Origin: Escherichia coli
Lineage (GTDB): Bacteria > Pseudomonadota > Gammaproteobacteria > Enterobacterales > Enterobacteriaceae
Strand: one strand, 5' to 3'
Assembly (NCBI RefSeq): GCF_003018255.1
Contig: NZ_CP027440.1
DNA: 64,000 bases
Below, in pieces: positions 11,533-12,045 of this stretch. The translations under genes and the position numbers were made by a program. The number at the start of each line of letters is the position of its first letter. The stretch's first letter is position 1. The notes beneath the pieces are model-generated. The model did not search any database. It had not been told where the DNA came from and worked only from the letters and a program-made list of their open reading frames with translations.

Positions 11533-12045
11533 GTGAGTGGAATACTGACGCGCTGGCGACAGTTTGGTAAACGCTACTTCTGGCCGCATCTCTTATTAGG
11601 GATGGTCGCGGCGAGTTTAGGTTTGCCTGCGCTCAGCAACGCCGCCGAACCAAACGCGCCCGCAAAAGCGACAACCCGCAACCACGAGCCTTCAGCCAAA
11701 GTTAACTTTGGTCAATTGGCCTTGCTGGAAGCGAACACGCGTCGCCCGAATTCGAACTATTCCGTTGATTACTGGCATCAACATGCCATTCGCACGGTAA
11801 TCCGTCATCTTTCCTTCGCAATGGCACCGCAAACGCTGCCCGTTGCTGAAGAATCTTTGCCTCTTCAGGCGCAACATCTTGCATTACTGGATACGCTCAG
11901 CGCGCTGTTGACCCAGGAAGGCACGCCGTCTGAAAAGGGTTATCGCATTGATTATGCGCATTTTACCCCGCAAGCAAAATTCAGCACGCCCGTCTGGATA
12001 AGCCAGGCGCAAGGCATCCGTGCTGGCCCTCAACGCCTCAGCTAA
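11533..12045 (+). CDS. secM: SecA translation regulator SecM (secretion monitor), GTG start
   Basis: 170-codon frame starting at GTG 11533 ([37 protein letters not shown] signal peptide), C-terminal arrest peptide [17 protein letters not shown]; ORF track start 11380 is an upstream in-frame extension. Confidence 0.93.
11980..12030 (+). promoter_or_regulatory. secM: SecM ribosome-stalling (arrest) peptide coding segment [17 protein letters not shown]
   Basis: Exact match to the canonical SecM arrest motif directly upstream of secA. Confidence 0.9.

Follow-up and report, generated by a model that had tools for sequence, protein, structure and literature searches.

SecM is the founding nascent-peptide 'monitoring substrate' and a widely used stalling tool. 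Its arrest motif, 150-FxxxxWIxxxxGIRAGP-166, is a consensus derived by alanine scanning; these 17 residues are by themselves enough to stall the ribosome, and Arg163 and Pro166 are the most critical arrest residues (PMC4737659, PMC10951299, PMC10987492, PMC13249984). In the stalled complex, Gly165-tRNA occupies the P site and Pro166-tRNA the A site (PMC10951299, PMC13249984). The secA Shine-Dalgarno (SD) sequence is masked by an intergenic stem-loop (PMC4737659, PMC10951299, PMC10987492). In SecM proteins of the long class, a spacer of ~130 residues, with a median of 131.5, separates the signal sequence from the arrest site (PMC10987492). YheS-mediated release of the SecM stall has recently been described (PMC13249984).

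Here, a locus within a 64-kb window of Escherichia coli DNA (the whole stretch analysed, 64,000 nt) is compared with these systems. Taken in aggregate, the data make it almost certain that the locus is the E. coli secM-secA translational sensor, and its secM is an intact, ordinary copy of an already known, textbook element. Feature coordinates are collected in Table 1.

Table 1. Features of the secM-secA locus and Rfam matches in the window, with the basis of each assignment.
Feature	Position	Strand	Basis and remarks
secM CDS	11533..12045	+	GTG start, 170 codons + TAA; RefSeq annotation of a 100%-identical strain, K-12 match, Pfam/NCBIfam
SecM N-terminal Sec signal sequence (residues 1-37)	11533..11643	+	long basic n-region, hydrophobic core, ALSNA/AEP
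Arrest motif, SecM residues 150-166 (17 residues, F150 to P166)	11980..12030	+	direct translation, K-12 DNA identity, homolog conservation
Stall site: Gly165 codon GGC (P site), Pro166 codon CCT (A site)	12025..12030	+	codon positions; occupancy from PMC10951299, PMC13249984; PDB chain ends
5' arm of predicted SD-sequestering helix, in the last secM codons, starting inside the Pro166 codon	12029..12042	+	MFE, centroid, RNAalifold
secM stop codon TAA	12043-12045	+	direct reading
Predicted local hairpin CUCCGC-AAC-GCGGGG, re-using part of the 3' arm	12076..12090	+	constrained fold with the 5' arm ribosome-occupied
3' arm of predicted helix, with secA SD UUUGAG; GAG 12096-12098, 9-11 nt before ATG	12085..12098	+	folds, RNAalifold
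secA, regulated gene, 901 aa	12107..14812	+	ORF; Pfam and NCBIfam domains
PssrA (Rfam)	9052-9141	+	over ftsA 3' end and ftsZ start; K-12 annotates antisense RNA StfZ there
STnc40 (Rfam)	14788-14857	+	over secA 3' end and secA-mutT spacer
naRNA4/CssrE (Rfam)	15373-15450	+	REP-type element after mutT
tp2 (Rfam)	30621-30734	-	pdhR 3' end and pdhR-aceE spacer, by mapping onto K-12

Results

Identity and setting of secM

The start of secM was taken to be the GTG annotated in K-12 and in strain DETEC-S792, which is 100% identical here; in the mechanical list of open reading frames, the same frame begins earlier, at TTG 11380. Protein alignment to K-12 SecM (b0097), proposed as a check when the element was read from the letters alone, gives identity at 169/170 residues, the sole change being T170S, and the 51-nt motif DNA is identical to that of K-12. 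The family models agree: Pfam PF06558 scores 195.9 bits (cut-off 25; E=4e-58) over profile positions 1-146 of 147, and the NCBIfam equivalog NF002799 scores 231.2 bits (cut-off 100). By all tests applied, the frame is read as SecM, and nothing counted against this identity. The assignment made in the sequence-only reading is borne out by the K-12 match, the family models, the lpxC-secM-secA gene order and the sequences deposited in the PDB.

The locus is close to universal in the species. The 821-nt segment from 11380 to 12200 was found in 5424/5426 complete E. coli genomes, with the annotation at matching loci reading throughout 'secA translation cis-regulator SecM', then secA. Three complete E. 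coli genomes carry it with 100% identity, and its nearest relatives over this segment include DETEC-S792 and E. coli 042. Three of the 5424 matches lie in records labelled plasmid.

Downstream, secM is followed on the same strand by secA, whose ATG lies beyond a 61-nt spacer. The secA product is complete, with the Pfam domains SecA_DEAD, P-loop_SecA, SecA_SW, SecA_PP_bind and SEC-C and an NCBIfam PRK12904 score of 1316 bits. The order lpxC-secM-secA is shared by the window, K-12 and eight other genera, and spacers in those eight measure 56-63 nt. A consensus scan of 11250-12150 for promoters and terminators returned nothing beyond chance, and no terminator was found between secM and secA; the missing terminator fits co-transcription without constituting evidence for it. 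The Rfam scan of the whole window, reported above gathering score, gave no family over the secM-secA junction and four matches elsewhere (Table 1).

The arrest motif and stall site

The + strand over the motif reads TTCAGCACGCCCGTCTGGATAAGCCAGGCGCAAGGCATCCGTGCTGGCCCT, and its translation is the 17-residue arrest peptide. Direct translation shows that the coordinates first proposed for it, 11980-12030, are exact to the base. All nine specified residues of F150xxxxWIxxxxGIRAGP166 stand at their expected positions, including the critical Arg163 and Pro166. Mutation of the motif had been named at the outset as the observation that would count against an arrest peptide; all 17 residues are unchanged. 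The motif had also been placed at the SecM C-terminus. It lies near this terminus and not at it, because four codons (QRLS) and the stop follow Pro166.

A chance match is excluded, because a six-frame reading of the 64-kb window yields GIRAGP a single time and, by our arithmetic, an exact 17-residue match would be expected ~1e-17 times over ~128,000 six-frame positions. The bare tetrapeptide RAGP is also encoded at 17391 and 35313 (+); these are chance occurrences, with the upstream part of the motif absent.

Structural data connect this sequence to the stalled ribosome. SecM chains deposited for ribosome-stalled complexes (8QOA, 3JBU/3JBV, 9VVI/9XWO) stop at Gly165 and show no difference from the window protein across the matched residues, and residues 1-165 of the window protein equal the sequences deposited for stalled complexes. 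Several PDB chimeras carry SecM residues ~149-165 as a stalling tag. Together, the published motif definition and the identity over residues 1-165 support the reading as a SecM arrest peptide. From this identity, we infer that the present allele would arrest at Gly165/Pro166 and would be relieved by export.

Within the species, 5417 complete E. coli genomes contain the 51-nt motif, 5295 of them at no less than 99% identity (>=99%) and the other 122 at 95-99%. In the E. coli strain ETEC6335, the 51 nt carry two substitutions that give S151N and P153T; each of these falls on an x position.

Conservation beyond E. coli was measured as the fraction of homologs keeping the window's residue, among the best 120 of 762 homologs, all of them Enterobacterales SecM. 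In this set, retention is 0.92 at F150, 0.95 at W155, 0.88 at I156 and 0.92-0.95 across G161-P166; the corresponding ranges are 0.13-0.50 for x positions 151-154 and 0.36-0.64 for x positions 159-160. The pattern of conservation among these 120 homologs thereby reproduces the mutational consensus FxxxxWIxxxxGIRAGP. The residual 5-8% non-retention at conserved positions arises because database entries are truncated or frameshifted.

Some database SecM entries of 215-225 aa carry a +1 frameshift through the arrest motif (P0005-P0007, P0022, P0030, P0035). These are probably sequencing errors, since most are singletons from raw assemblies; unlike those, P0007 lies on a 4.9-Mb NCBI contig.

The signal sequence and spacer

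The N-terminus of the window protein has the organization of a Sec signal sequence. Residues 1-17 include four basic (K/R) and no acidic (D/E) side chains, and residues 20-30 form the most hydrophobic 11-mer. Residues 1-37 are the same as in K-12 by protein alignment, and mean identity over the signal sequence is 0.90 among the best 120 of 762 SecM homologs. Cleavage is predicted after residue 37, at an A-x-A-like SNA site (SNA/AE). From residue 37 to Pro166 there are ~129 residues, a length in agreement with the spacer of the long class, although the counting convention of the published survey may differ.

A predicted helix between the stall site and the secA SD

A 13-bp helix, 12029-12042/12085-12098, is predicted by the MFE and centroid folds of the single sequence and by the RNAalifold consensus of 10 genera. 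The junction set comprised the window, K-12, Citrobacter koseri, C. werkmanii, Salmonella, Enterobacter, Raoultella, Yokenella, Intestinirhabdus and Phytobacter. The thermodynamic signal of the junction fold alone is weak: z-scores are -2.05 for 151 nt (11975-12125) and +0.35 for the 116-nt junction taken alone.

Comparison across the set shows that pairing is kept. Standard pairs fill 96% of cells in the helix columns across the 10 genera, versus 30-55% when the partner columns are slid. Within the 3' arm, GTTTGAGA is invariant across the 10 genera with the single exception of Salmonella, where its first base is A instead of G. Compensatory double changes in the helix number zero across the 10 genera, and column shuffles leave the values unchanged, since there is hardly any variation in either arm, one being coding and the other the SD. 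The comparative data are thus best read as retained pairing potential and not as proof of structure, and the covariation analysis neither supports nor refutes the helix. The local hairpin predicted when the 5' arm is ribosome-occupied is paired in 93% of cells in the 10 genera, with no covariation.

The effect of a parked ribosome was assessed as the ensemble energy required to open the secA ribosome-binding site (-14 to +2) in free versus blocked mRNA. The opening energy was used because the mean unpaired probability of the SD is uninformative: it hardly changes with versus without the parked ribosome (0.35 versus 0.36), owing to weak, AU-rich pairing with early secA codons that is predicted when the ribosome is parked. 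With a ribosome at Pro166, the computed opening cost in the window falls from 8.1 to 3.6 kcal/mol, a result that depends on the edge of the assumed footprint, in which blocking extends 12 nt beyond the first base of the A site. As the modelled ribosome is moved along the window sequence, no drop is seen until its A site arrives at approximately codon 164. The drop has the same direction in all 10 genera and ranges from 0.2 to 4.5 kcal/mol; the smallest gains are those of Enterobacter (0.2) and Phytobacter (1.2 kcal/mol). The predicted helix would overlap the footprint of the stalled ribosome and would qualify as the SD-sequestering stem-loop.

The remainder of the window

The window corresponds to the K-12 map from mraY to htrE (~96.2-156 kb), with 97-98% blastn identity over the dcw-secA part. 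Several segments at a distance from secM depart from K-12. Between aroP and pdhR, ~4.2 kb (25462-29621) is absent from K-12. Here, 25900-27681 (+) encodes a 593-aa fusion of T6SS Hcp (TssD), Pyocin_S and colicin/pyocin HNH DNase domains, and the fusion gene is followed by colicin/pyocin immunity genes at 27681-27977, 28375-28668 and 29066-29356. Two short ORFs stand among the immunity genes: one contains an HNH motif and is likely the remnant of a toxin C-terminus; the other is hypothetical. At least 80% of a 4.5-kb query covering this island was found in 1052/5426 complete E. coli genomes. The segment resembles an Hcp extended-toxin effector island that carries orphan toxin-tip/immunity cassettes.

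Identity to K-12 falls to ~90% over panC-panB-yadC (55740-58147) and to ~79% over the yadC-yadK-yadL-yadM-htrE fimbrial region (58905-64000), the remaining window being at 97-98%; the latter region marks a strongly divergent fimbrial adhesin allele. At 37237-37484, the K-12 blastn pieces overlap with a 96-nt offset, which implies that yacH carries ~96 extra bases relative to K-12 as an in-frame difference in repeat number. At the rpnC 3' end before panC (55385-55740), the sequence departs from K-12 by a small rearrangement or insertion of ~340 nt, within which a 112-nt piece gives a second match to K-12 147748-147859.

Discussion

A model for the locus

The proposed mechanism is that of the K-12 system. 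Transcribed together with secA, as the literature describes for these genes, secM would be translated as far as Gly165. At this point, F150...G165 in the exit tunnel would hold the peptidyl-transferase centre, such that the A-site Pro166-tRNA could not form a peptide bond. The parked ribosome would cover the mRNA from the Pro166 codon onward; because this stretch would form the 5' arm that pairs with the secA SD, secA initiation would be allowed while the stall lasts. Engagement of the SecM signal peptide by SecA/SecYEG, and the pulling force of export, would then release the stall, the helix would re-form, and secA translation would return to its basal level. Since export pulling would release the stall, a secretion defect would prolong it and raise SecA. 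Stalling, its relief by pulling, YheS-mediated release and secA induction have been established experimentally for K-12, whose allele is nearly identical, and each would be anticipated here on that basis. A standard, intact secM in this window changes nothing in that picture; its value lies in textbook biology correctly recognised and in correct annotation.

Alternative explanations

That the motif is a coincidence, or that secM has decayed to a non-functional state, is refuted. Decay does occur elsewhere, in the database homologs frameshifted through the motif, and nothing else speaks for either proposal. Here, the 170-codon ORF is intact, its start and stop are those of K-12, the one change is conservative and outside the motif, secA is intact, and the locus recurs without a difference in three complete genomes. 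A different objection would accept the motif and assign it a minor part: secA translation would be mainly autorepressed by SecA bound to its own mRNA close to where secM and secA meet, with SecM arrest as an accessory. The model is an older one of the Oliver laboratory, represented by 1997 work cited in PMC10987492, and the high conservation of the junction could also reflect a protein-binding site. However, conservation within SecM fits stalling residues and not an RNA motif, in that the protein sequence varies at the x positions and functional residues keep their codons, and the stall has been seen directly in structures. Autorepression as the main control is accordingly very improbable.

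Less remote, though still unlikely, is a role in which arrest mainly tethers the secM-secA mRNA, and with it nascent SecA, to the membrane or translocon via the SecM signal peptide, in place of unmasking the SD, so that SecA would be synthesised at its site of action. A tethering role was reportedly proposed for K-12 SecM by Nakatogawa, Murakami, Mori and Ito (Genes Dev, 2005). Such a role is compatible with the conservation of the signal peptide among the best 120 of 762 homologs, and also with a computed gain in SD opening that is rather small in some genera. Yet tethering complements SD unmasking and does not exclude it, and the helix from the stall site to the SD is kept in 10/10 genera. 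SD unmasking is, moreover, the model stated in the literature on this system (PMC4737659, PMC10951299, PMC10987492). The translational sensor that acts by unmasking the secA SD thus remains the preferred reading of this locus.

Comparison with known systems

The closest described system is K-12 secM (b0097, NP_414639.2), which the window's gene resembles as a long-type Enterobacterales SecM with a GTG start, lpxC-secM-secA order, a 61-nt spacer and an SD-sequestering helix. The two alleles differ at codon 170, which is Ser (AGC) in the window and Thr (ACC) in K-12, downstream of the arrest point and outside the motif. Ser170 is the commoner residue, at 0.84 among the best 120 of 762 homologs. 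The same substitution places a G at 12041 that would pair with C at 12086 as G-C, where the K-12 helix has a C·C mismatch. Other differences are a few silent changes and an intergenic loop base, G in the window versus T in K-12 at 12056. The computed opening cost is the same in both (8.1 versus 8.3 kcal/mol), and there is no reason to expect a phenotype from the Ser170/Thr170 difference. It is a speculative and rather doubtful proposal that the Ser170 G-C pair, by lengthening the SD helix, lowers basal secA or shifts the induction threshold between lineages, and that variable x positions, such as S151N/P153T of ETEC6335, tune stall strength.

More distant is the short-type SecM of Pasteurellaceae (PF10818/NF038363), which has the same role upstream of secA. 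The window protein shows weak similarity to these models in the signal region (E=6.6e-4 and 1.3e-5), below both curated cut-offs, and was not assigned to this type. Short-type proteins differ in a far shorter spacer (median 71 versus 131.5 residues; PMC10987492) and in another arrest motif, e.g. RGSP in Mannheimia.

The architecture is shared more widely with VemP, MifM, RAPP-type ApdA/ApdP and ApcA: an upstream ORF combines an export or insertion signal with a C-terminal arrest sequence, and unmasks the SD of a downstream Sec or YidC gene. These systems differ from the window's SecM in being unrelated in sequence, in their hosts and in the genes regulated (secDF2/yidC2), and some have a different stalling chemistry. 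The RAGP, RAPP and RAPG arrest endings are nevertheless described as related (PMC10987492), and the window's SecM carries the RAGP ending of the long-type, K-12-like protein.
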